The notes under the pieces: generated by a model
Databases searched by the model: none
What the model saw: the letters and a program-made list of their open reading frames with translations, nothing else
What the model was told of the DNA's origin: nothing
Program-made: the position numbers and the translations under genes
Shown here: piece after piece, positions 1 through 62,482 of the stretch
Layout: each line of letters starts with the position of its first letter
Position numbering within the stretch: the stretch's first letter is position 1
Origin: an uncultured archaeon
GTDB lineage: Archaea; EX4484-52; JAADEF01
Direction of reading: 5' to 3'
NCBI GenBank assembly: GCA_964407715.1
Contig: CAYOWP010000005.1
Span: 12,780-76,779, forward strand
Length of the DNA: 64,000 nt

Positions 1-1320
1 AGAAGGCCAGGTAGGTTTGATAGAGAGATTGAGATTGGTGTTCCTGACAGAAATGCAAGGAAGGAAATCTTACAAATAAAAACCAGAGGCATGCCTTTGG
101 ATGAAAGTGTTGATTTAGATAAGATAGCGGATTTGACTCATGGTTACACTGGTGCAGATATAGAGGCTTTGGTAAAGGAGGCTGCTTTGAGAGCTGTAAG
201 AAGAATCGTTCCAGATATAGCAAAATTTGAAGGTCGCAAGTTACCGACTGAGATTCTTAGGAAGTTAAAGGTGAGCATGGATGATTTCATGCATGCATAT
301 AAGATAGTGCATCCATCAGCTTTGAGAGAGGTGCTCATTCAAAAGCCAAAAGTTAAATGGGAGGATATAGGGGATCTTGAGGATGTAAAGCAACAGTTAA
401 GGGAAGTAGTAGAGTGGCCATTAAAGTATCCTAAGGACTTTGAGAAACTTGGCATTAAACCACCAAAAGGAATACTGCTTCATGGACCACCTGGCACAGG
501 AAAGACATTACTTGCTAAAGCTGTAGCTAACGAGGCTGAGGCAAATTTCATTGCTGTTAAAGGACCCGAGTTGATAAGTAAGTGGGTTGGAGAGAGCGAG
601 AAGCATATCCGTGAGATTTTCAGAAAGGCAAGACAAGCAGCTCCCACAATAATTTTCTTTGATGAAATTGACTCTATAGCAAGTGCGAGAGGCAGAGGTT
701 TAGATGCTGGTGTGACAGAGAGAATGGTTAATCAACTTCTTACTGAGTTGGATGGTATCGAGGAATTAGAGAGGGTAGTGGTTATTGCTGCAACAAACCG
801 CTTGGATATGGTTGATCCTGCTTTGTTGAGGCCAGGTAGATTTGATAGAGTCATTGAGATACCAATGCCCGATGAAAAAGCAAGATTAGAGATTTTCAAG
901 GTACATACAAGAAGCATGCCATTAGGCAAGGATGTATGGGAATTCATCAAAAAAATTGTAAAAGATAAAGAATCATTGAAGGACGAAATTTTATCAAAAT
1001 ATAAATTAAAAGATGAAGAAATAAAAGAGGAATTTAATAAAATAAATAGTGAAGATGATGTAAATGAGTTCATAAAGAAATATAAAGACAAGATAAAAGA
1101 TAAGAAATCTTTCGAAAAAGATGTATTACAGATGTTAGAATTATTAGAATATACAATGGAAGGATTTACTGGTGCTGATATTGAAGCAGTAGTGAAAGAG
1201 GCAGGAATGGAAGCTCTGAGAGAGGCAAGAAAGAAAGGAGAGGAAATAGATAAAGTTAAAAAAGAGCACTTTATGAGAGCTATTAAGAAGGTAAAAGAGA
1301 CTATTAATAGAAGAAAATGA
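1..1320 (+). CDS. cdc48: CDC48/VAT AAA+ ATPase, 5'-truncated by the window edge (D1 end plus D2 domain)
   Basis: Frame is open from base 1 ([16 protein letters not shown]). D2 Walker A GPPGTGKT, Walker [21 protein letters not shown]. Confidence 0.97.
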
Positions 1321-1429
1321 GAATTTAAATTTTTACTTTTTTTAATTTTATTATTTTGGTGTTATTTCGTTTTTGATATATTTAAAATCTAATATAAGTA
1401 TTGATGTATACATACATAATAATTCCGGT

Positions 1430-1723
1430 TTAATTATCGTCTTCTTCCTCTTTTGGTTCAAACCATCTTACTACTTTACCACATCTTAAACATTTTTTCT
1501 TCCATTCTCTTACATTGCTAGAATAAATGTTAATATAAGTAGGTTTTCCCCATTTATGTATTCCTATTCTGCATAAAAAAGGTTTATTTTCGTTAGATAA
1601 TGGAGATATTTCAAACAAATTTATCAAAGAAATTATAGAACGGGATAAAGAGGATAAGATGCCATTTAAAATAGGAATAAAAATTAAAATAGTTATTATA
1701 ATGCAAACAATCTTATAACACAT
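1430..1723 (-). CDS. Hypothetical membrane-anchored zinc-ribbon protein, DUF1660-like (virus/prophage-type)
   Basis: N-terminal TM helix; LCRIGIHKW...KKCLRCGK motif. Confidence 0.5.
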   Translation of the reverse strand: MCYKIVCIIITILIFIPILNGILSSLSRSIISLINLFEISPLSNENKPFLCRIGIHKWGKPTYINIYSSNVREWKKKCLRCGKVVRWFEPKEEEDDN

Positions 1724-1815
1724 AAAATTATAAATGAATCAAAAGAGAAATATACGCTTATAACTAAAATTAGAAATATAATTAAGATGCTACTGATATA
1801 ATATACAATATATAT

Positions 1816-2151
1816 TCAAAGGGAGAATCCACCATATACTATTTCTTTTATATAGTATACTAATTTGAGTGATACTTCGTCTTCTCTTTTATTAATATAT
1901 TCAAAAATCATAGAAAAAATGATATATGAAATAAAGAATATAAGAGATATTATGATGATATCTTTTTTATAAAAGATATTTTCTACAAAAAATGATAAAA
2001 CATTGTATATAATCTTGATCAGGTTTATATTTTTTACATTTTCTATATTTGTAGATTGAATGGCTGTTGAAATATATCCGTTATAATATATATAGGATAA
2101 TATAGTAAGTAATATTAATCTTGTATTCTCATTTTTAAAGTTATTTATCAT
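1816..2151 (-). CDS. Hypothetical membrane protein, very AT-rich
   Basis: 111-aa ORF with hydrophobic segments; no recognised motif. Confidence 0.45.
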   Translation of the reverse strand: MINNFKNENTRLILLTILSYIYYNGYISTAIQSTNIENVKNINLIKIIYNVLSFFVENIFYKKDIIIISLIFFISYIIFSMIFEYINKREDEVSLKLVYYIKEIVYGGFSL

Positions 2152-2232
2152 AAAAATTAATTAAATATTACATTAAAAATTTAAAAATTTTTAACTGTAT
2201 AAATAAACAAATTATTTAAATAAAAACAACCT

Positions 2233-2394
2233 GATGGCTTTACCGGTGCTGATATCGAGGCAGTATGTAGAGAGGCTGCCATGAATGCATTAAGAGAAGC
2301 AAGGGCTAAGGGCAAAGAGGTGAAGGAAGTTAAGAAGAAGCATTTCGAAGAGGCAATTAAAAAAGTTAAAGAGAGTGTGGAGAGGAGGAAGTGA
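2233..2394 (+). repeat. Copy B of the cdc48 3' end ([53 protein letters not shown])
   Basis: Translates collinearly with cdc48 1159-1320; no start codon (in-frame stop at 2221). Confidence 0.95.
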
Positions 2395-2426
2395 TGTTAA
2401 ATAATTTTATAATTTTTACCTATGAG

Positions 2427-2455
2427 TAGGGAAATATTTTTAAATTATTTCCCTG
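2427..2455. promoter_or_regulatory. Inverted repeat AGGGAAATA-N9-TATTTCCCT straddling a TATA-like TTTTTAAA; putative operator/promoter of the ATPase
   Basis: 9-bp perfect arms about 15 bp upstream of ATG 2471; second copy at 6281-6311. Confidence 0.55.
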
Positions 2456-2470
2456 TATAATATACTACAT

Positions 2471-3730
2471 ATGGAGGTATATAAGCTAAGAGAGGTCGTA
2501 AAAGATTATTATGAAAAAGAAATTCCGGAAATTATAGAACGTGAAATAAAGGTATCTTTACCTGAGAATATAGATAGATGTGTTGTTCTAATTGGTCCGC
2601 GAAGAGCAGGAAAAACATATTATTTATTTCAACAAATGAGTAAATTAAAAAAGAATGAAAGAATATACATAAATTTTGAAGATTTCAGGTTTGAAAACGA
2701 AAATTATAAAGTGATTTTAGAGATAGTTGATCAATTTTTTCAATTAACGGGTTGTGAAAAGCCCATTTTATTTCTTGATGAGATTCAAAACATAAAAGAT
2801 TGGGAAATTGCGGTAAGAAATTTAATTGATCAAAGATATAAGATATTTATTACTGGTTCTAACTCTAAATTGTTAAGTAGAGAAATATCTACCTCATTAA
2901 GAGGAAGAAGTTTGAATTATTATATTTTTCCGTTTTCTTTTTTAGAATTTTTGAAAGTTAAAAAAATGAAAGTGAATAAATTTATTAGCAGTAAAGATAA
3001 AAATATGATATTGCGGTATTTGGAAGAATATCTAGAATTTGGAGGATATCCCGAGGTTGTATTAAGTGAAGAAAAAGAAAATAAGGAGAGAATCTTAAAA
3101 GAAATATGGGACTTAACAATCTTAAAAGATATAGTAGAAAGATACGGATTCAAGAATATAAAAATATTGAGGTTATTAATTAAAGCAATAATAGAATCAA
3201 AGGAATTGTCCATTCATAAATTCTATAATTTTTTGAAATCTATGAATATTCGAGTTAGTAAAAATACTCTTTATGAATACTTACAGGCATTAAGTGATGT
3301 GATGATAGTTTTTCCGGTTCATAACTATGCACCCACATATAAAGATGTAGAGAGAAGCATTCCTAAAATGTATTTGGTGGATAATGGGTTATATCTGCAT
3401 TCTAAAGACATAGGAAGAAAAATGGAAAATGTTGTGTTTGTGCATTTAAAAAGACAGGAGAATTATGCACCTTTGCAAGAAATATATTATTATAAAACGA
3501 AAAATAATAAAGAAATAGATTTTGTAGTCAAAAATGGCAATAATATTGAAATTATAGAGGTATGTTATGTATTTGATGAAGAACACAAAAGAAAATTAAT
3601 TTGTGCAATGGAAGAACTTAATTTAGAAGAATGTGTGTGTATTACTTGGGATGAGGAAGAAAAAATAGAAGAAAAAAACAAAAAAATACTTCTTATTCCT
3701 TTATGGAAGTGGCTAATCTCAGTAAAGTAA
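2471..3730 (+). CDS. AAA+ ATPase of the AAA_14/DUF4143 family
   Basis: GPRRAGKT Walker A, LFLDEIQ Walker B, TGSNS, GGYPE, KMYLVDNG, C-terminal EIDFV nuclease-like motif. Confidence 0.9.
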   Translation: MEVYKLREVVKDYYEKEIPEIIEREIKVSLPENIDRCVVLIGPRRAGKTYYLFQQMSKLKKNERIYINFEDFRFENENYKVILEIVDQFFQLTGCEKPILFLDEIQNIKDWEIAVRNLIDQRYKIFITGSNSKLLSREISTSLRGRSLNYYIFPFSFLEFLKVKKMKVNKFISSKDKNMILRYLEEYLEFGGYPEVVLSEEKENKERILKEIWDLTILKDIVERYGFKNIKILRLLIKAIIESKELSIHKFYNFLKSMNIRVSKNTLYEYLQALSDVMIVFPVHNYAPTYKDVERSIPKMYLVDNGLYLHSKDIGRKMENVVFVHLKRQENYAPLQEIYYYKTKNNKEIDFVVKNGNNIEIIEVCYVFDEEHKRKLICAMEELNLEECVCITWDEEEKIEEKNKKILLIPLWKWLISVK

Positions 3731-3745
3731 ATAAGAAATAAAAGT

Positions 3746-3808
3746 AAGAAGAAAACCTTCGAGGAGGCTATTAAAAAGATTAAGGAGAGTGTGGAGAGGA
3801 GGAAGTAA
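3746..3808 (+). repeat. Copy C of the cdc48 3' end (KKKTFEEAIKKIKESVERRK*)
   Basis: In-frame similarity to the cdc48 terminus and to copies B and F. Confidence 0.9.
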
Positions 3809-3818
3809 GGGTTTTACT

Positions 3819-4619
3819 TTACTCTGCGATTATTTTTTCTATTCTCTTCCTGTACTCAGGCACTTCTATGAATTCCTTTATTAATTCCTTAGCATCTTTT
3901 TTGTTCCGAGAACCCTTGCATTGCGTAGCACTATGCTTTTCAATGAAAATTGTTAAAACACAGTCTTCCTTCTTCACGCTGAAGTTTATGTTTTTCTCGA
4001 AATTTTTGAGGACAGCCTCGATATCTTCCTTTTCAAACGTTGAAGGGATTTCCGAACCGGAAAATTTTAAATTCTGCTCTCTGTAAGTCATAAAGATTCT
4101 CAGTTCGTTTTCATCAAGAATCTTTTTCGCTTCACTAACCTCCATCTTTAGAGGTGTAGGATCAACAACCAGCGCCTTTCCTCCATATCTCAACACTCTG
4201 TAAATTTCCTCGAAGAAAAAATCTGGACATCTTAGTCCGTGCAAAACACCTGTTGATACAATATAATCGAAGTAATTTTCCTTAAACGGTAGGCGGTACG
4301 CATCTGCTGCCACAAATCTCGCTTTATCTTTCGTGTATTTTTTAAAATACTTCGAAAATTCGAGCGTGCAATCTATTCCAATGTACGTACCCTCGACTAA
4401 TCTCGAAATTTCATAAAGCAGCATTCCGTGAGCGGTTCCTATGTCAAGTAATTTTATTTCCCTCTTCGGATTTTTTCCAATATCTTCTGCAATCCTTTTT
4501 GCTATTCTACGATAAAAATCCTTTCCCGCGTACTCACATATTTTCACATATGTTTTGACGTGCTCTTCGGGAATTCTTTCCCATGATTTCATATCAAGAT
4601 AATATCCATTAAATTTCAT
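3819..4619 (-). CDS. Class I SAM-dependent methyltransferase
   Basis: LLDIGTAHG motif I, GIDC, ADAYRLPF, FDYIVS. Confidence 0.85.
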   Translation of the reverse strand: MKFNGYYLDMKSWERIPEEHVKTYVKICEYAGKDFYRRIAKRIAEDIGKNPKREIKLLDIGTAHGMLLYEISRLVEGTYIGIDCTLEFSKYFKKYTKDKARFVAADAYRLPFKENYFDYIVSTGVLHGLRCPDFFFEEIYRVLRYGGKALVVDPTPLKMEVSEAKKILDENELRIFMTYREQNLKFSGSEIPSTFEKEDIEAVLKNFEKNINFSVKKEDCVLTIFIEKHSATQCKGSRNKKDAKELIKEFIEVPEYRKRIEKIIAE

Positions 4620-4734
4620 GTATTATCTCCTCTAAAGAATACTCCTCTCCTTTTTCCATATTTCTTAAAATATTATTGATTTTTTCTTTTATTTTCTCCA
4701 TATCTTCTTTAATTGCGTATTGGATCTTAGGCAT
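4609..4734 (-). CDS. Small antitoxin-like protein MPKIQYAIKEDMEKIKEKINNILRNMEKGEEYSLEEIIHEI (not in the ORF track)
   Basis: Manual translation; N-terminus homologous to ORF 5345-5512; stop overlaps the MTase start. Confidence 0.6.
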   Translation of the reverse strand: MPKIQYAIKEDMEKIKEKINNILRNMEKGEEYSLEEIIHEI

Positions 4735-4805
4735 GATTTCACTTTATTTATACATCCTATACATACTTTAAACTATTTATACTTTAAAAAGCTTTGAGAA
4801 ATAAA

Positions 4806-4964
4806 GGCATTGTCCAATAATCTTCTATTTGTTAAGCGGAAAAGCAGCCTTTTAAAGAAGTGCATGAGAGAAAGCTAACCTTGTAGAGCCAATGCGATTA
4901 CCGCTATAAGTGCTATTTGCGCGTTAAATTTCCGCTTAACAATAAGGAATTATCGGACAATGCC
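4806..4964. mobile_element. MITE-like element 1
   Basis: TIR GGCATTGTCCAATAAT / ATTATCGGACAATGCC; near-perfect 9-bp flanking repeat AGAAATAAA/AGAGATAAA. Confidence 0.85.
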
Positions 4965-4970
4965 AGAGAT

Positions 4971-5030
4971 AAAAAGCATTTTGATGAAGCAATTAAAAAA
5001 ATTAAGGGGAGTATGAAGAATGTGAGGTAA
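4971..5030 (+). repeat. Copy D of the cdc48 3' end (KKHFDEAIKKIKGSMKNVR*)
   Basis: In-frame similarity to the cdc48 terminus. Confidence 0.8.
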
Positions 5031-5343
5031 TATTAAACAAACCCTTTAATTTTTCTTTTATTTCTTCAATTTTGGTAGAGGTTAATTTTCCTATTGTTTT
5101 ATAGATTAAACTTTTTTCAACAGTATATATAGAATGAAGATGTATAAAACTTTCTTTTTTTATTTTACCTTCTTTCAAACTACTTTGGTTAATTTTAATC
5201 TCATATTTACTTATTTGACTTTTAGAACTTATTTTACACACAATAACATCCTTCTTAGAAACATCTGCTAATATCATTACAGGTCTTAATTTATAAGATT
5301 CATATGAAGAATATATTAACTTCAAAACAACTATGTCTCCCAT
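5002..5343 (-). CDS. PemK/MazF-family toxin (likely start 5343 rather than 5397)
   Basis: GDIVV...KLRPVMIL...VIVCKISS...ESFIHLHSIYTVEK pattern; stop lies inside cdc48 copy D. Confidence 0.85.
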   Translation of the reverse strand: MGDIVVLKLIYSSYESYKLRPVMILADVSKKDVIVCKISSKSQISKYEIKINQSSLKEGKIKKESFIHLHSIYTVEKSLIYKTIGKLTSTKIEEIKEKLKGLFNITSHSSYSP

Positions 5344-5344
5344 G

Positions 5345-5512
5345 TTATATCTCAAATAGTTCCTCTGCATCTTCCCCTTCCTTATATAATCTTTCATGAG
5401 AATATCTTTTCAAAGATGACGATTCTAAAAATTCTATTTTCTCTAATACTTCTTTTATTAAATATTTTATTTCCTCTATATCCTCTTTAGTTGCATACCT
5501 TACAGAAGGCAT
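5345..5512 (-). CDS. Putative antitoxin MPSVRYATKEDIEEIKYLIKEVLEKIEFLESSSLKRYSHERLYKEGEDAEELFEI (not in the ORF track)
   Basis: Manual translation; SD-like GGTGGTGA; ends 1 nt before the toxin ATG. Confidence 0.7.
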   Translation of the reverse strand: MPSVRYATKEDIEEIKYLIKEVLEKIEFLESSSLKRYSHERLYKEGEDAEELFEI

Positions 5513-5569
5513 TATCACCACCTTATAAGAATATAATAACTTTGAACTTTAAAAATGTTGTTTGATAAT

Positions 5570-5629
5570 AAGAGACACTTTAGACGAGTAATTAAGAAGG
5601 GTAATGAGAGTATGAAGAAAAGGAAGTAA
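5570..5629 (+). repeat. Copy E of the cdc48 3' end, the most degenerate (KRHFRRVIKKGNESMKKRK*)
   Basis: Same length and position relative to the stop codon as copies C and D; HF..IKK..ES...RK*. Confidence 0.7.
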
Positions 5630-5681
5630 TTTTCTTAATATTTTAAAATCTGAAAGATTATGGTATATTTATATACCTATA

Positions 5682-5915
5682 ATGTGTGGTGATTGCATGT
5701 ATATAACCTATGACAAAGAAAACGATGTACTTTACATAAAGTACAAAGAGGGAAAAATAATGGAAAGTGAAGAAATAAGTGAAGGCATTATTGTTGATTA
5801 TGATGAAAAAGGAGAAATTATAGGAATAGAGATTTTAAACTTTAAAGAGAGAAGTGATTTTAACTTAAAAGAATTTATTTTGTCTGAGGGTAAGAACATC
5901 TCAGTGATTCTATGA
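5682..5915 (+). CDS. DUF2283 protein (putative antitoxin; likely start 5697)
   Basis: ITYDKENDVLYI...GIIVDYDEKGEIIGIEIL. Confidence 0.85.
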   Translation: MCGDCMYITYDKENDVLYIKYKEGKIMESEEISEGIIVDYDEKGEIIGIEILNFKERSDFNLKEFILSEGKNISVIL

Positions 5916-6136
5916 AAATAATATTTACTAAGCATGCTTTGGAAAGAATGAAGGAAAGAGATATAGGATTTAAGGAAGTTAAGAGTACTTTGAAAAATCC
6001 TGATAAAATTGCTAATAATAGATATATCAAGAAAATAGATTCTTATGTGTTGATTGTAGTAGTTAATGAGGAGAGTAAAGGAGTCATCAAGATTGTTACA
6101 GTATTCAAAAGTTCTAAAATAAGTAAGTATTTATAG
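5912..6136 (+). CDS. DUF4258 protein (putative RelE-fold toxin)
   Basis: IIFTKHALERMKERDI...KIVTVF; 4-nt overlap with the DUF2283 gene. Confidence 0.85.
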   Translation: MKIIFTKHALERMKERDIGFKEVKSTLKNPDKIANNRYIKKIDSYVLIVVVNEESKGVIKIVTVFKSSKISKYL

Positions 6137-6144
6137 TAAGATTT

Positions 6145-6249
6145 TTAAGAGAAGCCAGGGCTAAAGGTAAGGAAGTGGAGGAAGTCAAGAAAAAACACTT
6201 TGAAGAAGCAATTAAGAAGATTAAGGAGAGTGTGGAGAGGAGGAAGTGA
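6145..6249 (+). repeat. Copy F of the cdc48 3' end (LREARAKGKEVEEVKKKHFEEAIKKIKESVERRK*), followed by a duplicate of 2395-2460
   Basis: In-frame similarity; 6250-6313 is nearly identical to 2395-2458. Confidence 0.95.
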
Positions 6250-6394
6250 TATTAAATAATTTTATAATTTTTACCTATAAATAGGGAAATATTTTTAAAT
6301 TATTTCCCTATATATTGACAGTAAAGATAAGAGAAAAAAATTTGGAGATTATTCAGAAGTTGTGTCAAATAAAAGAACACAAAAAAGCCAATCA

Positions 6395-6467
6395 TAGCAG
6401 TTAACCCCTTGAATATGGCTATACTTTCCGTTAACCAAATTTCTCAAAATATATTATTGGGCAATAC
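6395..6467 (-). mobile_element. Truncated MITE remnant (one TIR plus one arm)
   Basis: Reverse complement matches 29496-29570 (TIR-ATATATTTTGAGAAATT-GGTTAACGG..ATAGCC.TATTCAA.GGGTTAA). Confidence 0.75.
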
Positions 6468-6553
6468 ATGGAAATGACTAATTATGTGTTAAGAAAATAT
6501 ATATTTTTGATGTAATTATAATATAATATTTATCCAAATTATGTTCAAAGCAG

Positions 6554-6808
6554 GTGATGAATGTGACAGATGAAGAAGCAAACATGGCAATGAGTAAAAG
6601 CATTACTATTACGACATTGAGTTTTTTGATAAACATACCTAGAGCAGAACTTGAAGAGAAGTTAAAGAACAACGAGTACATAGATGAGTTTGAGATAGAG
6701 GAATTGGATGATAAAGATATTAGGAAAGATGTATTTATCATTTTTAAAAATCCCGTGGATATCAGATATCTTCCAAATGTAATTAGCGAGATTCTTGGTT
6801 ATCGATAA
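6554..6808 (+). CDS. Hypothetical protein
   Basis: SD-like GGTG; directly upstream of AMP phosphorylase. Confidence 0.6.
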   Translation: MMNVTDEEANMAMSKSITITTLSFLINIPRAELEEKLKNNEYIDEFEIEELDDKDIRKDVFIIFKNPVDIRYLPNVISEILGYR

Positions 6809-6825
6809 ATTAAGGGGATGAAATA

Positions 6826-8328
6826 ATGGTATTAGAAGCAAGAGTGAAAAATATAAATTTAAATACTTTTTATGAGTGTGCCATAATCTCAAAAAGTCTT
6901 GCAAGAAAATTAAATGTGAGAGAGGGAGACAGGATAAAGGTCAGGAAGAGATTTTCTGAGAAGGTATATATTGTGGATATAGACAATGATAATGAGATTG
7001 TAAAGGATGATCAAATAGGTATACCTAAAAAGTACTCATCTTTTAAGGATAATGATGTTGTGATGTTGAGAGTCACCAATCCCCCAAAATCAAAAGAAAT
7101 AATAAAAAAGAAAATTGAGGGGTATGAACTTTCTAAGAGAGATATTAGATTGCTTATAAGTGATGTATATCATAGGAGATTGTCTAATATTGAGATAGCA
7201 TCATATCTTACAGCTGTTAAAATAAATGGAATGACAATAAAGGAGATTTATTATGTGACTCAAGAGATGTATAAATATGGAGATATCATCTCATGGCCCT
7301 GGCATTGGAAAATTGTGGACAAACATTCCATAGGAGGTATTCCTGGCAATAGAACAACGCCAATTGTAGTTAGCATAGTTGCAGCAGCAGGATTAAAAAT
7401 TCCAAAAACATCAAGCAGAAGCATTACATCACCTGCTGGTACGGCAGATACTATAGAGGTATTGGCGGATGTATGCTTCTCTATTGATGAAATAAAGAGA
7501 ATTGTTAGCAAAACTAATGGATGTATGGTATGGGGCGGGGCTTTAGATTTGGCTCCAGTTGATGATATATTTATTCAAATAGAGAAACCTTTGAATTTGG
7601 ATCCTGAAGGACAAGTAATTGCATCTATACTCTCAAAGAAGAAATCTGTAGGAAGCAAATATGTGCTTATAGACATACCTTACGGAGATGAGGCAAAGAT
7701 AGAGGAATTTAATAAAGCAAAAATTTTGGCAGATAAGTTCAAGATAGTAGGTGCATATTTGGGTATGAGAGTTGAAAGCATAATTACAAAAGGATCATCT
7801 CCTATAGGAAGCGGAGTAGGGCCTGTATTGGAGATGATAGATGTACTTAATGTACTTTATGGAAAGGGGTCTCGTGATTTAAGAGAAAAATCTTTAGAAA
7901 TGGCGGGGATATTGTTAAATATTGCAGGCAAAGGAGATTACAACACTGCAAAATACATATTAGAGAGTGGAAAAGCATTCAAAAAATTTAAGGAGATAAT
8001 AGAAGCGCAAAATGGTAGCGTTAATAAATCTCTTATAGATATGCTTGGGAGACATACTTACGAGGTCAAGGCATCTCAGGATGGGATAGTAGAGAAGATA
8101 AGCAATTCCTCTATTGCTGAGATTGCTAAAAGGGCAGGTGCTCCATCATTCAAAGGTGCTGGCGTATGGTTGTTCAAGAGAGTTGGTGATAAAGTTAAAA
8201 AAGGGGAGACATTATTTAAGATATATGCTGAAAGCGAGAGAAAATTAGATTATGCGCTTGATGTGGTGAAAGAGAACCCACCATTTTTGCTAAGCAAAAA
8301 GGATAGTTTTATTGTGATGGAGAGGTGA
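6826..8328 (+). CDS. deoA: AMP phosphorylase (thymidine phosphorylase family)
   Basis: N-terminal double-psi-barrel-like extension, DKHSIGGIPGN, KTSSRSITSPAGTAD. Confidence 0.93.
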   Translation: MVLEARVKNINLNTFYECAIISKSLARKLNVREGDRIKVRKRFSEKVYIVDIDNDNEIVKDDQIGIPKKYSSFKDNDVVMLRVTNPPKSKEIIKKKIEGYELSKRDIRLLISDVYHRRLSNIEIASYLTAVKINGMTIKEIYYVTQEMYKYGDIISWPWHWKIVDKHSIGGIPGNRTTPIVVSIVAAAGLKIPKTSSRSITSPAGTADTIEVLADVCFSIDEIKRIVSKTNGCMVWGGALDLAPVDDIFIQIEKPLNLDPEGQVIASILSKKKSVGSKYVLIDIPYGDEAKIEEFNKAKILADKFKIVGAYLGMRVESIITKGSSPIGSGVGPVLEMIDVLNVLYGKGSRDLREKSLEMAGILLNIAGKGDYNTAKYILESGKAFKKFKEIIEAQNGSVNKSLIDMLGRHTYEVKASQDGIVEKISNSSIAEIAKRAGAPSFKGAGVWLFKRVGDKVKKGETLFKIYAESERKLDYALDVVKENPPFLLSKKDSFIVMER

Positions 8329-55418: not shown

Positions 55419-55859
55419 TCAAGCTTTTACCTGTGATTCATAAATCTCCTTTGCTAATTTATCTAATAATGATCTTCCTTTTGATGTCAACCTCCTCCCT
55501 TCTGGCACTTTCTCAGCATAACCTGCCTTCTCTAATTGTTGAAGAATCTTACGGATTATATTTCCGCTCCCTGGATAGAATTTCTCTGGTTCATAACCTC
55601 TGTTTTTTCTTCCACCATATTTCCTTCTTAATCTCGATACGCCATAAGGTCTAAAATAAAGTTTTCTCATCACTGCTGCTGCTCTTATATACCACCAATC
55701 TTTATTCTCTGGAACTCTCTCTTTATGTACACCAGTTTTTACAAACATAGCCCATTTAGGTGGCTGGATATTCTCATTTTCCTTTAGGATCTTGGCTAAC
55801 CTTTCTATAAAAACATTAGGATCAATATCTGCAACGCTTACCATACAATCCCCTTTCAA
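55419..55859 (-). CDS. rps19e: 30S ribosomal protein S19e
   Basis: PPKWA.FVKTG..KER.P, WWYIRAAA. Confidence 0.97.
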   Translation of the reverse strand: MKGDCMVSVADIDPNVFIERLAKILKENENIQPPKWAMFVKTGVHKERVPENKDWWYIRAAAVMRKLYFRPYGVSRLRRKYGGRKNRGYEPEKFYPGSGNIIRKILQQLEKAGYAEKVPEGRRLTSKGRSLLDKLAKEIYESQVKA

Positions 55860-55935
55860 TCGTTTGATATATTCTCAAAAGTTTTTAATTCACATAATTT
55901 TAAAAAAGTGATAGATTTTTGATTATTCGCAATCT

Positions 55936-56361
55936 TTACACATCTATGATTATCCTTGCAAAATATTTATCATTTTCTTTTTTTACAACTATGTTATGAT
56001 ATGTGGCAGCCTTTACACCTGCTCCTAAGATTTTGTGGCGTGTGCTATCAAACACATCATAGCTCATTTTACTTTTAAGAGAGATTTTATCCTGATTCTC
56101 TTCAATGGCGAATTCCTTAAAATCTATAAAAATTATTTTTTTAACCTCGAAGAGGTAGATTATTTCATTTAGAGTCTCTACTAATATCTCCTCTAAATCT
56201 TTCCCTTCGATGATAAGTTCCTCTTCTCCTTTCTTTTTTAAGATTTTTAAGTCCAAAAAGATGCTGTATAGAGCAGATATAGCATCCTTGAATAACTCCT
56301 GCAAATTTTCTCCTTTCACCTCGATGCCTATATCTCCTGTGTGATCTATCAATCTATACAT
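55936..56361 (-). CDS. Archease
   Basis: IDHTGDIG, VKAATYH, IIDV. Confidence 0.95.
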   Translation of the reverse strand: MYRLIDHTGDIGIEVKGENLQELFKDAISALYSIFLDLKILKKKGEEELIIEGKDLEEILVETLNEIIYLFEVKKIIFIDFKEFAIEENQDKISLKSKMSYDVFDSTRHKILGAGVKAATYHNIVVKKENDKYFARIIIDV

Positions 56362-56420
56362 AAAGATAATCTAAACATGAGTTAAGTTTTAAAATATTTG
56401 ACCTCAATAAGAATATTTTT

Positions 56421-57317
56421 ATGTCAGAGATCCAGAAAGGTAGAGATAAAAAAAGAGAAGAGATAATATATGATGCGGTTGGTACTTTAGAAGATTTGAG
56501 GGAAAGAATTCCAAAATTATTTGGGATACCTAGCGGTATTAAAGGATTGGATGAGCTATTCTACACAACTTATATTGATGAGGAAGATAAAAAAATTAAA
56601 AGAAAAACATTGGGAGGTATACCTTATTTATCCGTTATCAATATTACAGGTGTGAGTGATACAGGTAAAAGCTTAATGGTTGAGCAATATGCTGTTAATC
56701 AGGCAGCACATGGTTATAAAGTTGCTTTTGTTACTGTTGAATCCCCTTCACCATTTGTAGGGATGGGATTAAAAGAGAGAGCAAAAGCTATGGGCTTTGA
56801 ATGGGAAAAAATAGAAAACAATATTATCTTGATTGATGCTGCTACCCACGATATCATGAGAGAGGACATTTCAACTTTATTATCAACATTGGAATATGCA
56901 ATCTCTGAGTATAACACAAAATCTGTGGTTATAGATTCTATAACAGGCTTATTTGAGGCTAAGGAAATGATGGCAAGGAGTGTGGTTAGAAAGATCTTCA
57001 ATTTTATGAAAAGATACAAGCAAACAGCATTATTCGTTTCTCAAAAAAGGAGCAGTCATGAAGAGTTAAGTGCAGAGGCAGCAGGAGGGTATGCGATTAG
57101 CCATATTGTTGATTGCTCTATTGTGCTCTCTAAGGAGTTAATAATGAATAGATATCTCTCACAGATGTACAACTCTCCCATAGGTAGTGTTATCAGATTG
57201 TTTAGAATAGATGGTTGTAGAGTGTGTGGTCATGATACTAGAACTCATCTGCTATATATCACCGAGAGCGGATTAGTAGAGATAGGACCAGCATTGGAAG
57301 AGATTATCTCGAGGTGA
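56421..57317 (+). CDS. KaiC-like RecA-superfamily ATPase
   Basis: G.PSGIKGLDEL, TGVSDTGKS, VIDSIT, RIDGCR..GHD. Confidence 0.88.
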   Translation: MSEIQKGRDKKREEIIYDAVGTLEDLRERIPKLFGIPSGIKGLDELFYTTYIDEEDKKIKRKTLGGIPYLSVINITGVSDTGKSLMVEQYAVNQAAHGYKVAFVTVESPSPFVGMGLKERAKAMGFEWEKIENNIILIDAATHDIMREDISTLLSTLEYAISEYNTKSVVIDSITGLFEAKEMMARSVVRKIFNFMKRYKQTALFVSQKRSSHEELSAEAAGGYAISHIVDCSIVLSKELIMNRYLSQMYNSPIGSVIRLFRIDGCRVCGHDTRTHLLYITESGLVEIGPALEEIISR

Positions 57318-57322
57318 TGTGA

Positions 57323-57940
57323 ATGGTGATAGAATTAAAGCCCATAGAAGAAAATCTTGATTCGAAGGCATTGAGAGTATTTCTAAAGGCGATTGAGATT
57401 TTGGGAGGCCCAAGAAAATTGATTGAGTATAGGAACTTAACTTGGCTACCAAGTTTGATGGCAGCAAGTTATGCTATAATATATTACAAGGATAAGAATT
57501 ACTCTGCAGAGACAATCGCCAATATATTAGGCATAAGCACCACTACTGCAAAGAACATTTTAAGAGCTGATGAGACAATAGCAAAGGAAAAAATAGATGC
57601 TTTTCTCAGTAATGAGAAAATGGATGAGAATAAAAAGACACATGTTGCAGGAGCATTAGCAAAGATGGCATATAAAGAGATAATGCAGGGTAGAGATGAA
57701 ATCAATATGATGATGCATTTAGTTGGAGAAACATCAAAGTCCTTGGGGGTTGAGTGGGCAGTTAAGGTCTTGAGTATGTTAAAAGGCACTGATTTTCCTC
57801 TTGATAAAGATGCTTTTCTCAGCAAATTGAGAGGAGTGAGCATAAAAGGAAAAAGAATTGAGGAGATTGTAGAGAGCATGTCTTTTCCGATACACACTCC
57901 TGCAGAGTTGTTGCATGAGATAAAAAAAGCCATGGATTAG
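57323..57940 (+). CDS. KaiC-associated HTH regulatory protein
   Basis: LGGPRKLIEYRNLTWLPSL, HTH, H.AG..AK.AY. Confidence 0.7.
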   Translation: MVIELKPIEENLDSKALRVFLKAIEILGGPRKLIEYRNLTWLPSLMAASYAIIYYKDKNYSAETIANILGISTTTAKNILRADETIAKEKIDAFLSNEKMDENKKTHVAGALAKMAYKEIMQGRDEINMMMHLVGETSKSLGVEWAVKVLSMLKGTDFPLDKDAFLSKLRGVSIKGKRIEEIVESMSFPIHTPAELLHEIKKAMD

Positions 57941-57955
57941 ATTATGAGTAAGTGT

Positions 57956-58444
57956 TCAAGGCACAAAAACAGCAATAGCTACGGTGGTTATCCACATGCC
58001 ATTTTCATTTTTTGCTTTTTGTGTGATGTTTAATGTTTTAGCTTTTATATCTTTTTTTCCGATTTTTGTTTTTAGCATTTCTAAAGCCATTTTTTCTGCA
58101 TATTCTTCCGCGTTTATTATGGATTCGCCTTCTGAATTATATTCAAAGATATAGCCATGCATCTTATTGTCTAAAGGAATAGCGACACCAATAGAGGATG
58201 CTATTTCTTTTCCTTTTATGTTTGTTTGGTTCTTAGCCATAACGCAAAACACGATTTCTCCTGTGTTTAAGCGTTGATTTCCTTCTTCACGTGAGATAAT
58301 TTCGCAACCTGGAGGAATTATGCTTGATACTGGTACAAGGTTGTATCTCTCAATTCCTGCATCTCTTAATGCCAATTCAAATGATACTAATCTATCCTCA
58401 TGACATCCAAGACCCTTTGTAAAAAAAATTTTTGAGGGTATCAT
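57956..58444 (-). CDS. pdaD: Pyruvoyl-dependent arginine decarboxylase
   Basis: SFELALRDAGI..YNLVPVSSIIPP. Confidence 0.93.
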   Translation of the reverse strand: MIPSKIFFTKGLGCHEDRLVSFELALRDAGIERYNLVPVSSIIPPGCEIISREEGNQRLNTGEIVFCVMAKNQTNIKGKEIASSIGVAIPLDNKMHGYIFEYNSEGESIINAEEYAEKMALEMLKTKIGKKDIKAKTLNITQKAKNENGMWITTVAIAVFVP

Positions 58445-58560
58445 AAACTTGAAGGAGATTATTGAAAGGATTTTAAAAAGGTTATGTCTCCAAACTTTTA
58501 ATATCTCGATATGTGAATATAGCGTAAGATTTAAAAAGATATGAGGTTTAAAATATCCTT

Positions 58561-59157
58561 ATGGTAAGCAATTTAAAAGAGATAGAAGAGAAAGTTAAAA
58601 TTCCAAAGAACCCATATGATATAAAGATTACAAACATTGTTTTTGGTGTTGATTTGAGTGGTAGTGTGCCATTAGATAGAATAGCCAATACTTTAGAAGA
58701 TGCGGAATACGAGCCAGAATCGTTTCCTGGATTAGTGTATAGGATTGTTGATTATGGTGCTACTGCTCTTGTATTTACAAGTGGAATGTGTATTTTGTCA
58801 GGAGTAAATACAGTTGAGAAGGCATATCAGGCAGCAAAGAAGATGATAGAGGATTTTAAATCAGTAGGGGTGAAGTTTGAGAAAGAACCAAAAATGAAAA
58901 TCGTTAACTTAGTTATCTCTGCCAATATCAAGAAACCTCTTGATTTAAACAGAATCGTATATGAGCTGGGAGATTGTGAGTATGAACCAGAGCAATTTCC
59001 TGGATTAATTCATAGGATGGAAGATACAGGTGTTGTGATACTTATCTTTAATAGCGGTAGGGTTATAGTGACTGGATCAAAAGATGTAAAGAAATCTTTA
59101 AAATCTATTCAGCTCTTGGAAAAGAGATTAGAAGATATAGGAGCAATAATAAAATGA
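58561..59157 (+). CDS. tbp: TATA-box-binding protein (paralog 2)
   Basis: EYEPESFPGLVYR and EYEPEQFPGLIHR repeats. Confidence 0.94.
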   Translation: MVSNLKEIEEKVKIPKNPYDIKITNIVFGVDLSGSVPLDRIANTLEDAEYEPESFPGLVYRIVDYGATALVFTSGMCILSGVNTVEKAYQAAKKMIEDFKSVGVKFEKEPKMKIVNLVISANIKKPLDLNRIVYELGDCEYEPEQFPGLIHRMEDTGVVILIFNSGRVIVTGSKDVKKSLKSIQLLEKRLEDIGAIIK

Positions 59158-59169
59158 TTGCTACTGGTG

Positions 59170-59988
59170 TTATCCAATATATCCTGGTGGACCTTCTCCT
59201 TTCTCAGATTTTTTCTTTATTGTGGCTTTTAGTTGTTGTAGTGCTACCTTTTCCATTTCTTCAATTTTCTTTAGGATTTTTTCAACTTCTTTAACATGTT
59301 CATGAATCTTTGAGAGATCCAACTCTTTTAAGTTTAGATATTCCTTTAAAACTTCTAACACAGCCTCTGCTGCTATTGGATCTGACATAAGTAAACCAGA
59401 GGTTTCTCCCATTAGACATGTTGCTGGGATCCCAAGACGGGTTGCCTCGCTTAATATTACCCCAGCAGCTCCCACTATCTGATTAACCTTGCTGTTCTTG
59501 AATATGACATTATATCTCTCGAATTCTTTTATTTTTTCCTTATCATTTGTTGCTCCAAAAACCTTTGGTTTTCTACCTTCTATTAGCTCACCTGTCCCGA
59601 AACCTCCTATGCTTATAACCTCTTTTATGCCAAAGGTATCTATTAGAAAGTCTAATACATTAAAGGAAATATCATAATAGCCTTCTGTTGTAACAGGTTG
59701 GGCATCTCCTATCATTATAACTATATTTGGTTGTTTTTTCTTTTTATCTCCTTTTATGTAATATAGCTCATACCTAATTGGTATTATCAATCCCTCTCCT
59801 TCATGATCCACACTCACCACTGGTGGTAATGAATCAGAATATACCTCCGCAAACTTTTTAGCTTTTAAAATATACACTAAATACCCAGCTACGTTTCTAC
59901 CTACAAAACCAACACCAGGCGCTATTCCTTGGATAAACACCACATCCCTTATTTTTGGAATTTTGATATACTCTATTTCTGTTACCAT
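59170..59988 (-). CDS. Proteasome assembly chaperone (PAC2 family)
   Basis: PGVGFVG, GDAQP, SIGGFG, IVGAAG, CLMGET. Confidence 0.9.
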   Translation of the reverse strand: MVTEIEYIKIPKIRDVVFIQGIAPGVGFVGRNVAGYLVYILKAKKFAEVYSDSLPPVVSVDHEGEGLIIPIRYELYYIKGDKKKKQPNIVIMIGDAQPVTTEGYYDISFNVLDFLIDTFGIKEVISIGGFGTGELIEGRKPKVFGATNDKEKIKEFERYNVIFKNSKVNQIVGAAGVILSEATRLGIPATCLMGETSGLLMSDPIAAEAVLEVLKEYLNLKELDLSKIHEHVKEVEKILKKIEEMEKVALQQLKATIKKKSEKGEGPPGYIG

Positions 59989-60034
59989 ATTTTTCCTCCA
60001 TTTGAAACCTTCATAATAAATTATTATTTTTAGG

Positions 60035-60190
60035 TTAAATATATCCTTTTTCTTTTAATCTATATACAATATGCTTTTCGTTTATGAAAAACTTGTATGC
60101 TTTAATCTTTTTTGTTGGAATCTTGCATTTTTCACATGTTTCTTTTAAGGTATATTTTCCACATTTTTGGCACTTACGAATACATAGCAT
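60035..60190 (-). CDS. nop10: Nop10 (not in the ORF track)
   Basis: Manual translation MLCIRKCQKCGKYTLKETCEKC...; conserved eIF2a-nop10-PAC2 order. Confidence 0.85.
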   Translation of the reverse strand: MLCIRKCQKCGKYTLKETCEKCKIPTKKIKAYKFFINEKHIVYRLKEKGYI

Positions 60191-60207
60191 TTTAGAAACC
60201 TCTTATC

Positions 60208-61002
60208 TTAATTTTTTATTCTCTCAAATGAAAGGAGATAATTATATCCTTTCAACCTGTTTTCAATTTCTTCAAGAACATTTTTTAATTTTTGTTCCAT
60301 TTTTTTATAGTCTTCGCCTATCAATTCTAATCTATACCTTGGTGATGAGAGGTATGTAATCCTAATCTTATCCTTGAAATCCAACGCCTTTTTTATGATT
60401 TCTATGCCATTGTCCTCATATACTATTAGGTTTATATCTCCCTTTATCACCAATTCCTTTGGTTTAATATACTCAACCGCAAAAGAATATATTTTTTCTG
60501 CTATTCTTTTGTCTATGTTAAGAGATGTTAAAGCTTCTATTCCTTCCTCTAATGCAATCTCAAAGCCACTATACATACTTCCAAATTCTTTTTGCATTAT
60601 GAATCCTGCCTTCTCATATATCTCATCCAAGCTCATATTTAAATCCTTTGCTATCATTTTTAGAAAATTATGTGCCTTTTTCTCATTTCTATATTCTTTT
60701 ATTTTTTCTCTTGCAATTGTTGGTTTCACTCTTTTCATTGACAACTCAATATATCCTCTTTTATCTAAATTCAACACCACTGCTACAACCTTTTGACCTT
60801 CTTTTATGAATTTTCTTATATCTTTTACCCAACTTGAAGAGATTTCTGAGATGTGTATTATGGCTTTTTTATCTTCATACTCATCAAGAGTAGCTATTGC
60901 GCTACTTGGATTTATTTCCCTTATCGTTGCTATAATGTATTCTCCTATATCAGGTAAATCTTTATATTTTCTTATTCTATCGTCATTCGTTATTATAAAC
61001 AC
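60208..61002 (-). CDS. eif2a: Translation initiation factor 2 alpha subunit
   Basis: S1 domain LDEY..K..IIHISEISS.WVKDIR, LSMKRV, SPRYR. Confidence 0.95.
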   Translation of the reverse strand: MFIITNDDRIRKYKDLPDIGEYIIATIREINPSSAIATLDEYEDKKAIIHISEISSSWVKDIRKFIKEGQKVVAVVLNLDKRGYIELSMKRVKPTIAREKIKEYRNEKKAHNFLKMIAKDLNMSLDEIYEKAGFIMQKEFGSMYSGFEIALEEGIEALTSLNIDKRIAEKIYSFAVEYIKPKELVIKGDINLIVYEDNGIEIIKKALDFKDKIRITYLSSPRYRLELIGEDYKKMEQKLKNVLEEIENRLKGYNYLLSFERIKN

Positions 61003-61016
61003 CTCCTTTTATTGCA

Positions 61017-61184
61017 TTATCCTATTGGTTGAACCACTTTGACTTTTATTTTTGCTTTACCTCCTGTTGGCTCTGCCAATACCTCTCCACATACTAAGCA
61101 TCTCACAACTGTAGCTGCTTTCTCATATATATTCTGCTCATTTCCACACTTATCACATTTTACCCTTAGGAATCTACCGACCAT
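61017..61184 (-). CDS. rps27e: 30S ribosomal protein S27e (not in the ORF track)
   Basis: Manual translation [13 protein letters not shown]...[14 protein letters not shown]. Confidence 0.93.
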
Positions 61185-61274
61185 TCATTTCTCACCTTGA
61201 TTTTTAGCTTTTTATTCTCTAAAATATAATGAAGATACTAAAATTTATAAAGATTTAATGTAATTATAACTTTA

Positions 61275-61514
61275 ATGGGAAGAGATTTGTTTAAGGCTCA
61301 AGCAAGCGCAATTAATATTGTGGTTGCGATAATTGTTTTGGTAATTGTTGCATTGGCATTAATTGTGGTCTCTACCTCAAGTGTATCAGATTTGGGAGAG
61401 AAAGCCAAACATGTGATGGGTAAAATATTTGGTAGTAAAAACGCTAAGTCAAAGGAGAAGGGAGCTATAGATCAAATACTTGAGAAAATTACTGTGGAAG
61501 AATCATTTGGTTAA
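61275..61514 (+). CDS. Small pilin-like protein (class III signal peptide); stop codon supplied by element 7
   Basis: KAQ/ASAINIVVAIIVLVIVAL; TAA lies inside the element's GGTTAAC. Confidence 0.65.
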   Translation: MGRDLFKAQASAINIVVAIIVLVIVALALIVVSTSSVSDLGEKAKHVMGKIFGSKNAKSKEKGAIDQILEKITVEESFG

Positions 61515-61609
61515 CGGGAAGCATAGCCATACTCAAAGGGTTAAACCGCTACAAGTGCTGTTTGCGTGTTAAGTTTCCGCTTAACAATAAAGAATTATCG
61601 GACAATGCC
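61501..61609. mobile_element. Element 7: left-truncated MITE
   Basis: Right TIR ATTATCGGACAATGCC; body matches element 4. Confidence 0.85.
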
Positions 61610-61711
61610 TGCAATTTAAAATTCAACACAAAATTTATAAATATTTGTTTTTATAAAATTAATTTTATATGGTGATATATTGAGAGATGTGCATTAAGGA
61701 GGTAATGAATT

Positions 61712-62482
61712 ATGACACGACTATTATCCGTTGTTTCTGGAAAAGGAGGAGTTGGTAAGACAACAATTTCTGTAAATCTCGCTGCGAGTATGCATGATTT
61801 TGGGGTAAATGTAGTTCTTATGGATGCTAATATCACTACTCCAAATTTGGGATTCCATCTTGGTGTGCCTCTCCATCCAAAAACATTGCATGATGTGTTA
61901 AGAGGAGAAGCAAGCATACATGAAGCAATATATACGCATCCTACAGGTCTCAAAATAATCCCAGCAGGTATCAGTATCTCAGATCTCAAAAGTGCACAAC
62001 CTGAAAAACTTGCGAGAGCTGTATTGGATCTTGTTGGTGAATATGATTTGGTGATTATGGATAGCGCTGCTGGTCTTGGAAGAGAAAGCTTGGCATGTCT
62101 TGAGGCTGCTGATGATGCTTTGGTGGTTACAAATCCAAATATCCCGGCTGTGACAGATGCTTTGAAAGCAATTAAGCTTGCTGAAGAATTTGGCACAAAT
62201 GTTCTTGGCGTGGTGTTGAATCGCGTAACTGGTAAGAGATCAGAGTTGGATCCTGATGACATAGAATCGTTGTTAGGTTATCCTATCGTATCTATAATAA
62301 GAGAAGATCCTCTATTTCATGAGAGCTTATCTGCTAAGACACCTTTGGTTTATTATGCTCCTCGCTCGAGAAGTTCCTTAGAGATTAAGAAATTAGCTGC
62401 TGAGATAGCAGGTATTGAGTGGACAATGCCAAAAATATCAGAAGGAGGATTATTGCAGCGATTAATCAATTTGTTTAGATGA
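61712..62482 (+). CDS. minD: MinD-family ATPase
   Basis: SGKGGVGKTT, DANITTPNL, DSAAGLG, GVVLNRV. Confidence 0.92.
   Translation: MTRLLSVVSGKGGVGKTTISVNLAASMHDFGVNVVLMDANITTPNLGFHLGVPLHPKTLHDVLRGEASIHEAIYTHPTGLKIIPAGISISDLKSAQPEKLARAVLDLVGEYDLVIMDSAAGLGRESLACLEAADDALVVTNPNIPAVTDALKAIKLAEEFGTNVLGVVLNRVTGKRSELDPDDIESLLGYPIVSIIREDPLFHESLSAKTPLVYYAPRSRSSLEIKKLAAEIAGIEWTMPKISEGGLLQRLINLFR

Follow-up and report, generated by a model that had tools for sequence, protein, structure and literature searches.

How does the gene for an essential unfoldase come to be followed by five further copies of its own 3' end, and why do several of those copies differ from one another almost only at silent sites? 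The question arises at cdc48 in a DPANN archaeon from hydrothermal vent metagenomes (about 0.9 Mb assembled; hereafter G000), at the start of the 64-kb stretch of contig CAYOWP010000005.1 that was analyzed as a whole (the window). The window opens inside the gene and covers its 3' part on the + strand (1..1320, the end of D1, D2, and the resident tail; AAA E 8e-49, AAA_lid_3). The whole gene encodes 774 amino acids with tandem Walker motifs and has the N domain and the two AAA modules with lid domains of a CDC48/VCP-type AAA+ protein. The resident open reading frame (ORF) is intact to 1320, where it ends with ...[18 protein letters not shown], and five truncated copies follow it on that strand, every one in frame up to a stop of matching register. 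We name the tails in order along the + strand, A being the resident one. B spans 2224..2394 (53 to 56 codons, the whole interval being 56 plus stop), C about 3743..3808 (about 19 to 20 codons plus stop), D about 4963..5030 (about 19 codons), E about 5564..5629 (about 18 to 19 codons), and F 6145..6249 (35 codons plus stop), all on the + strand. A repeat search returned B to F as one five-copy family with spacings of 1414, 1222, 599, and 620 nucleotides (nt), and successive tails from A to F are separated by 0.6 to 1.4 kb of cargo. We consider it probable, if well short of certain, that integrase-less defense and toxin-antitoxin (TA) cassettes accreted in tandem at the cdc48 end and that the copies then recombined with one another.

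A first-pass annotation of this sequence had proposed that the copies differ mostly at synonymous sites, as if taken from different cdc48 alleles, and that each had been under protein-level selection in a donor or in an earlier state of the host. The codons that it quoted for B, C, and F are exact (TTC GAA GAG GCA, TTC GAG GAG GCT, and TTT GAA GAA GCA, respectively, with Thr for His in C). Counts by the method of Nei and Gojobori (NG86) bear out the synonymous excess for these three: B and F differ by 14 synonymous and 2 nonsynonymous changes over 34 codons (pS 0.76, pN 0.02), B and C by 5 and 3 over 17 codons, and C and F by 5 and 2 over 17 codons. In neutral simulations that placed the observed number of changes randomly on each pair (20,000 runs per pair, window base composition, kappa 2), B-F runs had a mean of 12.5 amino acid-changing substitutions and 0/20,000 had two or fewer; over 19 codons, P was 0.00025 for B-C and 0.00005 for C-F. 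Silent sites of B and F are near saturation with two residue changes between them, and recent local duplication followed by decay therefore cannot explain the pair; neutral drift of F over its silent-site distance would have left mostly peptide-altering changes. Compared with the resident tail of G004 (G001 to G004 being the other four genomes of the same DPANN family), B has 27 nt differences and one residue change over 53 codons, or 13 synonymous and 0 nonsynonymous differences over 34 codons. B and F are as far apart at synonymous sites as orthologous resident tails of different genera are. These counts support the view that the differences among B, C, and F arose under protein-level selection.

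The two remaining copies, D and E, are more diverged but keep frame and stop, as the annotation had said, with 7/19 residues changed in D and 9 of 18 to 19 in E. The ratio of nonsynonymous to synonymous divergence (dN/dS), which it had proposed to compute, ranges from 0.15 to 2.5 for D and E against the other copies, and E-F has 1 synonymous and 11 nonsynonymous differences. For pairs with D or E we rely on the NG86 ratios and not on the simulation (E-F, P = 0.26), whose P values are biased low there because changed codons were set against single simulated changes and several differences fall within a codon. D and E look like sequences under relaxed selection or in neutral decay. Protein-level selection thus holds for B, C, and F, through their silent-site bias and the use of B as a working end, but does not extend to every copy.

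That use of B is seen in a variant strain. The resident tails of G001 to G004 are all of the B type, and that of G004 is identical to B at 52/53 residues. In X2, the Logan contigs of a run from another sample and study than X1 (the run from which G000 probably came), record 10 (1451 nt, depth 11.7) joins D2 directly to tail B. It consists of 507-925 of the window with 4 mismatches, 29 letters of in-frame, canonical, insert-free sequence that G000 does not have, 2224-2395 (tail B) with 7 mismatches, and the methyltransferase cassette, 3810-4640, with 6 mismatches; at each joint the shorter flank measures 172 nt. Absent from this contig are 926-2223, which holds an insert within Cdc48, tail A, and two small ORFs, and 2396-3809, the ATPase cassette; the second gap is as long as the B-to-C repeat spacing (1414 nt). 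The X2 strain is 99% identical to G000 in the cdc48 body, and the two listed X2 differences in B (2256 and 2271) are synonymous by reading of the frame. Tail B is the working cdc48 end in the X2 strain. Since the X2 form has 29 nt missing from G000 and matches all four relatives, we infer that it is the older state. The A segment of G000 (926..2223, + strand), which comprises a diverged but in-frame 3' portion of cdc48 (the insert at about 937-1134 and tail A at 1159-1320) and a two-ORF cassette and replaces 29 nt of the variant strain, would then be a recent insertion that displaced B, the native 3' end. With two co-occurring ends, A plus insert and B, cassette traffic would alter the sequence of a core unfoldase between near-identical strains.

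Junctions of D2 to tail B or F were among the evidence that the first-pass annotation had suggested seeking. The first exists in this one contig, and no D2-to-F joint was seen in the Logan contig data, in which stretches without cover were not counted as evidence. Other contig joints were left unused, as their sides were <31 nt and they were probably from paralogues or other organisms. Tail B itself differs between G000 and X2 at 7/172 nt and the flanking body and methyltransferase cassette at 10/1250 nt; B may be decaying in G000, or the X2 tail may be a B/C hybrid. Contigs of X2 and X4 match the window up to 4703, 5647/5648, and 6303 and then diverge into other sequence, and other strains or relatives probably carry different cassettes past these boundaries.

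The insert is 66 residues long, K/E rich, and located in the D2 lid region of the resident Cdc48 (about 937-1134, residues 313-378 of the window ORF). It is missing from 4/4 family relatives and from the X2 strain, and residues 1-312 are 89 to 91% identical to the cdc48 products of the family relatives. Two distant Cdc48 proteins (P0002 and P0013) have inserts like it at the corresponding position of D1. Tail A with the insert has no close relative among 5.8 billion clustered proteins, the best non-self match having 50% identity over 44% of the region. The search returned 13 proteins at E <= 0.001, and no donor for tail A and the insert was identified from them.

Copies within a genome also share substitutions that are particular to that genome. 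Lys occupies codon -3 in 4/4 copies of G003 and in 0/11 other aligned copies; the resident tail and the extra copy of G002 are identical over 87 nt, including an Asn codon found in G002 only, and part completely from codon -5; the two copies of G001 share Ile and EAL; and in G000, C, D, and F have in common an Ile at codon -9 that is in no relative's copy. The apparent breakpoints are scattered, lying at about codon -16 in G003, codon -8 between B and F, codons -6/-5 in G002, and just past the stop in X2. B and F form a mosaic that differs at 16/81 nt in codons -34 to -8, at 0/24 nt over the final seven codons and the stop, and at 5/66 nt downstream, where the 65-nt segments that follow the two tails (2395-2459 region versus 6252-6314) are 95% identical over 63 nt. 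Judged from the genome-specific shared substitutions, copies within a genome evidently recombine with or convert one another, and the mosaic of B and F suggests that a tail and its downstream cargo can move together. Import of foreign alleles is therefore not the only process that keeps the copies protein-like; recombination or gene conversion among them does so too, which the annotation had not foreseen.

At the synonymous sites that separate the genera (codons -17, -16, -10, and -8), B agrees with its congener G001 at 4/4 sites, and F with the other genus at the same four. Among outgroups, the His codon is CAC in 5/5, and the Lys codon aligned with codon -8 is AAG in 5/6, with Arg in the sixth. 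By these lineage-typical states B and F appear to be different allele types, as had been proposed, and the data fit an imported F and an older state of this lineage alike.

The array is a trait of the family rather than of G000 alone. Extra tail copies occur in G001, G002, and G003 (3/4 relatives), and the G004 contig ends 1.37 kb past the stop. Contig C139 of G003 carries at least 4 tail copies or remnants, with a PemK pair, an MNT-like/HEPN-like pair, a nucleotidyltransferase-like ORF, a DUF2283/DUF4258 pair, and a RelE-family toxin as cargo. The PemK cassettes of G000 and of this contig are 79.2% identical over 506 nt, and the DUF2283/DUF4258 pair with its tail is 79.9% identical over 578 to 616 nt between G000 and both G002 and G003; shared cassettes (79 to 80% nt identity) are as diverged as the cdc48 body (76 to 81%). 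The tail behind the DUF2283/DUF4258 pair begins at the same first base in G000 (F), G002, and G003. Cassette order and content differ among G000, G001, G002, and G003. The right-flank gene (6554-6808) lies beside ribosomal protein genes in G001 and beside other genes in G002 to G004, and no ancestral empty site was definable from these genomes.

Outside the family, a convincing extra tail was present at 0/105 cdc48 loci, namely, 25 from the same order (with about 1.2 to 1.5 kb downstream) and 80 on metagenome contigs (with up to 9.9 kb); the only matches were three marginal, K/E-rich ones (E 0.006 to 0.007). The 80 metagenome loci came from a search with tail B and served as negative controls, and 80 genome loci lay outside the extra-tail scan. 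That search of metagenome and species-genome collections returned only distant cdc48 tails (<=67% identity) and no new family members. As a genome-wide control, the last 35 residues of 738 ORFs (>=120 amino acids) were compared with the 8 kb downstream. A same-strand match was obtained for 7 ORFs, of which cdc48 alone had several partial copies, three were whole tandem ATPase paralogues, and three had single matches.

Elsewhere in G000, four tandem DUF4143 ATPase paralogues with 38 to 57% protein identity occupy contig C6 at about 55,700-61,750 on the - strand. Their 3' ends of 205 to 300 nt have 85 to 94% nt identity and their last 35 residues are 97 to 100% identical; by this comparison the row appears to be a second locus with tandem gene ends that were homogenized or repeatedly replaced. 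On contig C1, a 199-amino-acid ORF on the - strand (oriented 98663-99263) is followed 972 nt downstream, on the same strand, by a 17-residue copy, 100% identical, of part of its last 35 residues, which may be another displaced gene-end fragment.

To account for this locus, we envisage the cdc48 3' end as an insertion hot spot in this DPANN family, to which small, integrase-less packets of defense and TA genes would be added one after another. Incoming DNA would supply or regenerate the last codons, so that cdc48 stays whole, and the previous end would be pushed downstream as a silent, 5'-truncated copy; the repeated topology of complete end, cargo, and truncated end would correspond to insertions by a circle carrying a copy of the end. 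Being direct repeats of 60 to 170 nt, the copies could afterward recombine, among themselves and also with the resident end, through conversion, deletion, and perhaps reinsertion of excised circles, giving mosaic tails and changed cassette content. The copy joined to the gene would be under purifying selection, and the silent ones would be recent former residents (B), templated on a resident, or old and decaying (D and E). The copies would differ mainly at silent sites because each either was long a translated cdc48 end, in this lineage or a donor, or had such an end as its template, and D and E would decay neutrally because they were neither overwritten nor recently displaced.

Two features of gene-end accretion are found at the locus: the gene is kept whole with a displaced end downstream in direct orientation, X2 using B as its end, and presence/absence polymorphism is bounded by repeats, in the X2 gaps and in the differing cassette content. 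No recombinase domain was detected in 9/9 array ORFs of G000, the arrays of the relatives being cut by contig ends. The scattered breakpoints, the varied boundaries, the 29-nt loss, and the shared private substitutions favor ordinary homologous recombination for the reshuffling. We infer both the order of insertions and the reshuffling by homologous recombination, as opposed to a dedicated integrase, from these patterns.

Several points weigh against tandem accretion followed by recombination as we have drawn it. Population evidence for the variant end consists of one Logan contig of one run, and the collections hold only four related genomes, in which the arrays tend to coincide with contig breaks. 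With 16/102 nt different from B, F is too far from it to have been converted recently from the last resident end, and an intact F therefore requires recent import or some other constraint. The tree of tails that the first-pass annotation had wanted (9 tails over 102 nt) did not deliver, as 5/6 of its inner forks are open, with B and F unplaced, A on a long branch, and support for the resident and extra tails of G002 only (91/96). At the A insertion, 29 nt of the displaced end were lost, and the left and right boundaries vary from copy to copy. With such unclean junctions, a simple single-crossover model is insufficient for every junction. Tails B, C, and F agree throughout their last 21 sense nt, and the 65-nt stretches behind B and F match at about 92 to 95%, compared with about 72% for a presumed ATPase remnant beyond F, so that the shared end and the segment after it could be a nucleotide-level recombination site and not a record of history. 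Finally, neither an excised circle nor an empty site was seen.

One alternative is classical site-specific tandem accretion, in which decayed elements resembling cis-mobilizable elements (CIMEs) are integrated by a trans-acting tyrosine or serine integrase at one fixed core in or after the last codons, the tail differences being surrogate ends borne on attP. With its complete end, cargo, and truncated end, the array has the topology of attL/attR stacks; three genomes agree in the left boundary of F; and B and F share their last 24 nt, the 65 nt downstream, and ATPase-type cargo. Extra integrases are encoded on other contigs of G001, G003, and G004, and loss of the integrase gene after integration as well as tandem integration has been described for archaea (PMC8371274). 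What makes us doubtful of this otherwise possible explanation is that the array has no integrase and that the traces of one elsewhere do not lead back to it. G000 has a single Phage_integrase (PF00589) match, on contig C1, whose protein is conserved in 5/5 genomes and is probably a housekeeping Xer-type enzyme; six integrase loci of the family have nothing in common with the arrays beyond one 28-nt chance match; and 35 pattern matches to the tail in IMG/VR viral contigs yielded 0 confirmed fragments. The last 21 sense nt of B, C, and F are identical, but the apparent breakpoints and the left boundaries vary and do not seem to fall at one core, and the A junction lost 29 nt. Local duplication with neutral decay, or an assembly artifact stringing strain variants together, could be entertained since the copies lie close together, assemblers can mis-thread repeats, and the relatives' contigs break at the arrays. 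We give this almost no credence: the synonymous bias excludes neutral decay for B, C, and F, the left boundaries of all five copies, B to F, are spanned by separate X1 Logan contigs (records 3 and 6), and the independently assembled G002 and G003 have the same architecture.

Two further explanations would give the silent copies a role. The annotation had suggested that the array could act as a reservoir of alternative Cdc48 C termini; in its programmed form, silent copies would serve as donors for switching, as at pilS/pilE or in shufflons. Two ends, A with its 66-residue insert and B, do occur on near-identical gene bodies in two samples, and the silent copies are promoterless and 5' truncated like silent cassettes. 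However, the peptides of B, C, and F differ by 1 to 3 residues and D and E are decaying, so that A versus B is the only difference in protein that a switch could offer; all copies are direct repeats without a recombinase nearby; and the X2 form is not derivable from G000 by tail-to-tail recombination, the 29 nt being missing there. The suggestion is accordingly weak, and we judge a programmed reservoir very improbable. It is just as hard to credit that conservation acts on the silent copies themselves, as translated peptides or fused ends or as nucleotide sites such as terminators, promoters, or recombinase sites. The hairpin segment conserved after B and F, the lack of any variation among B, C, and F in their final 21 sense nt, and a PemK ORF whose antisense course crosses about 29 nt of tail D, as its G003 counterpart does, would agree with such a role. 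Against it, the variation is synonymous and fits selection on the translated frame, not on nucleotides; the copies have no start codons and are out of frame with neighboring ORFs; and 5/5 silent tails do not fold (z -1.3 to +0.9), the hairpin segment accompanying 2/5 copies only.

The accessory genes between the tails are defense and TA modules. Between A and B, a 97-amino-acid, small Zn-ribbon-like protein without a Pfam match is encoded at 1430..1723 on the - strand, and its homologue lies directly 3' of cdc48 in G004 (73% nt identity over 109 nt with contig C37); a 111-amino-acid hydrophobic small ORF follows at 1816..2151 (- strand, no family matched). The B-C cargo is an AAA_14/DUF4143 ATPase (2471..3730, + strand; E 5e-35 and 3e-20), which matches the PADLOC candidate defense family PDC-S01 (E 3.8e-92). 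A role of this ATPase in mobilizing the cassettes was considered and dropped. Cargo between C and D (3819..4734, - strand) consists of a class I S-adenosylmethionine-dependent methyltransferase (3819-4619) and a 41-amino-acid ORF (4609-4734). Just upstream of tail D lies a multicopy repeat resembling a miniature inverted-repeat transposable element (4806..4962, unstranded, inverted ends of ~37 nt), with 108 matches in G000 and 0 in the 4 family relatives and a contig depth of 190 to 264 versus 11 to 20 in the surroundings; it is outside the tail system. The D-E cargo (5002..5521, - strand) is a PemK/MazF-like toxin (5002-5397; PemK E 1.4e-14) with a 58-amino-acid putative antitoxin (5345-5521). 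The toxin ORF reads antisense through the end of tail D (5002-5030), as it does in G003 (L055 9-37), and the last 8 to 9 residues of the toxin are therefore encoded by the complement of a cdc48 tail. Between E and F is a DUF2283 (5682-5915) and DUF4258 (5912-6136) pair (5682..6136, + strand); translation of F by way of the DUF4258 frame was considered and dropped, as the frames differ.

After B, the 65-nt segment (2395..2459, + strand) is an AT-rich hairpin or palindrome upstream of the ATPase start (DNA fold z = -3.6). A second one follows F (6250-6314; z = -1.7) and is itself followed by a weak, probable remnant of a decayed DUF4143 ATPase, the two spanning 6250..6400 on the + strand; the remnant has a tblastn E of 0.003 with stops and 72% identity over 46 nt. 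The segment occurs after B and F only, has arms of 9 to 11 bp within a longer imperfect palindrome with 25-nt arms, and is better conserved than the synonymous sites of the adjoining tails. It may serve in recombination, as a terminator, or as an ATPase promoter/operator. A second multicopy repeat family (about 6380-6470) directly follows the F unit, with ~60 blastn matches across G000 contigs, and depth is raised in the bin 6319-6552. An Rfam search of 1-7000 gave one match only, at chance level (E 0.69).

The protein end at stake is an unusually short one for the order. Cdc48 tails of the whole family stop directly after the lid helix (1261-1320 in the window), whereas 24/25 order-level relatives (loci L014 to L038) have a C-terminal extension of ~20 to 25 residues with Tyr among the last 3 to 4 residues. 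The endings of these 24 are Y-[VLF]-G in 21, N-Y-G in 2, and Y-L-A in 1, and only L017 among the 25 loci is short like the Cdc48 of the family. We take the Tyr-bearing ending of the order-level relatives to be HbYX-like; the first-pass remark that the resident tail has no such ending was correct and holds for the whole family. An early insertion may have caused the shortened C terminus.

A bolder version of tandem accretion, which we put forward tentatively, is an integrase-free cassette platform. The last 20 to 55 codons of cdc48 would serve as a universal homology handle, and defense or TA circles carrying a working copy of them would move by homologous recombination. The Cdc48 C terminus would then be rewritten at every capture, as with tail A and its insert of 66 residues, so that selfish cassettes would cause the alleles of an essential unfoldase to turn over; the four DUF4143 ATPase genes in a row in G000 would count as another case. 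Should the exchange of cassettes here prove to need no integrase, this locus would serve as a model of exchange through recombination alone. It also offers a natural example of mobile cassettes at the end of an essential gene that leave the gene unbroken, in which the codon-level pattern of the leftover copies records the history of insertion.

Comparison with known systems places the locus within gene-end accretion as a known kind. The closest precedent for the silent-site pattern is prophage e14 of Escherichia coli, which is flanked by icd, extending into the prophage, and by the displaced fragment icdC, and whose excision leaves multiple synonymous changes and two conservative substitutions in icd (PMC13626634). 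As with e14 and phage 21 in icd, a substitute end is supplied, the native end falls silent downstream, and the differences are mostly synonymous; recombination of the two ends restores a chimeric working gene (PMC13626634). e14 differs in its size (15 kb), in encoding an integrase of its own, and in excising on SOS induction, whereas the cdc48 array, in an archaeon, is a stack of five copies with cassettes of 0.6 to 1.4 kb, heterogeneous boundaries, and no integrase.

Stacking at gene 3' ends is in turn typical of CIMEs. Elements related to ICESt1, an integrative and conjugative element (ICE), accrete at fda in Streptococcus thermophilus, and CIMEs form tandems with integrative mobilizable elements (IMEs) (PMC5704250). 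Like the cdc48 array, CIMEs are integrase-less stacks at a gene end with flanking att repeats that include the gene end (PMC5704250). In contrast, they are decayed ICEs or IMEs that a related integrase with a defined core mobilizes, while the cdc48 cargo consists of TA and defense modules, the arrays are family-wide, and no parent element or integrase of this kind was found in the family loci or in IMG/VR. The Islander approach reads displaced fragments and regenerated targets as marks of stacked island ends at tRNA and tmRNA genes (PMC4383910). Here the target is a protein gene, so that a surrogate end comes under codon-level selection, which gives the synonymous pattern. Integration in protein genes, tandem integration, and integrase loss have all been reviewed for archaea (PMC8371274).

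Integrons, reported from archaea in 2022 (10.1101/2022.02.06.479319, PMC9668308), resemble the locus in having a row of small cassettes, mostly of one or two genes and rich in TA modules, at a recurring site with a fixed anchor. Unlike them, the array has no IntI-type integrase beside it in G000, its cassettes have mixed orientation, and its gene-end repeats are without attC-like hairpins: no attC-like folding was found in 5/5 silent tails (z -1.32 to +0.90 versus shuffles), and hairpin-like structure is present only in the 65-nt segments. A likeness to Xer/dif modules (integrative mobile elements exploiting Xer [IMEX] or pdif-like modules) can be asked about as well, a dif-like site consisting of two 11-nt inverted arms around a 6-nt spacer (PMC8371274). 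No inverted-repeat structure was seen in the purine-rich core of the tails, the host dif sequence lying outside the comparison. At pilE/pilS, 5'-truncated silent copies downstream of the expressed gene exchange sequence with it. The silent cdc48 copies, by contrast, add hardly any protein diversity, and nothing about them points to programmed switching. Nor is the locus a shufflon or silent-cassette system, which has different C termini and a dedicated recombinase: its copies are direct repeats that encode nearly the same peptide, with no recombinase.

What is particular here, then, is the cdc48 target, the DPANN host, an array in which no integrase was found, the defense and TA cargo, and persistence across a family. 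In these respects the locus extends gene-end accretion, known from CIMEs and from the prophages of bacteria, to sub-megabase genomes of DPANN archaea, in which integrated elements have been little studied.

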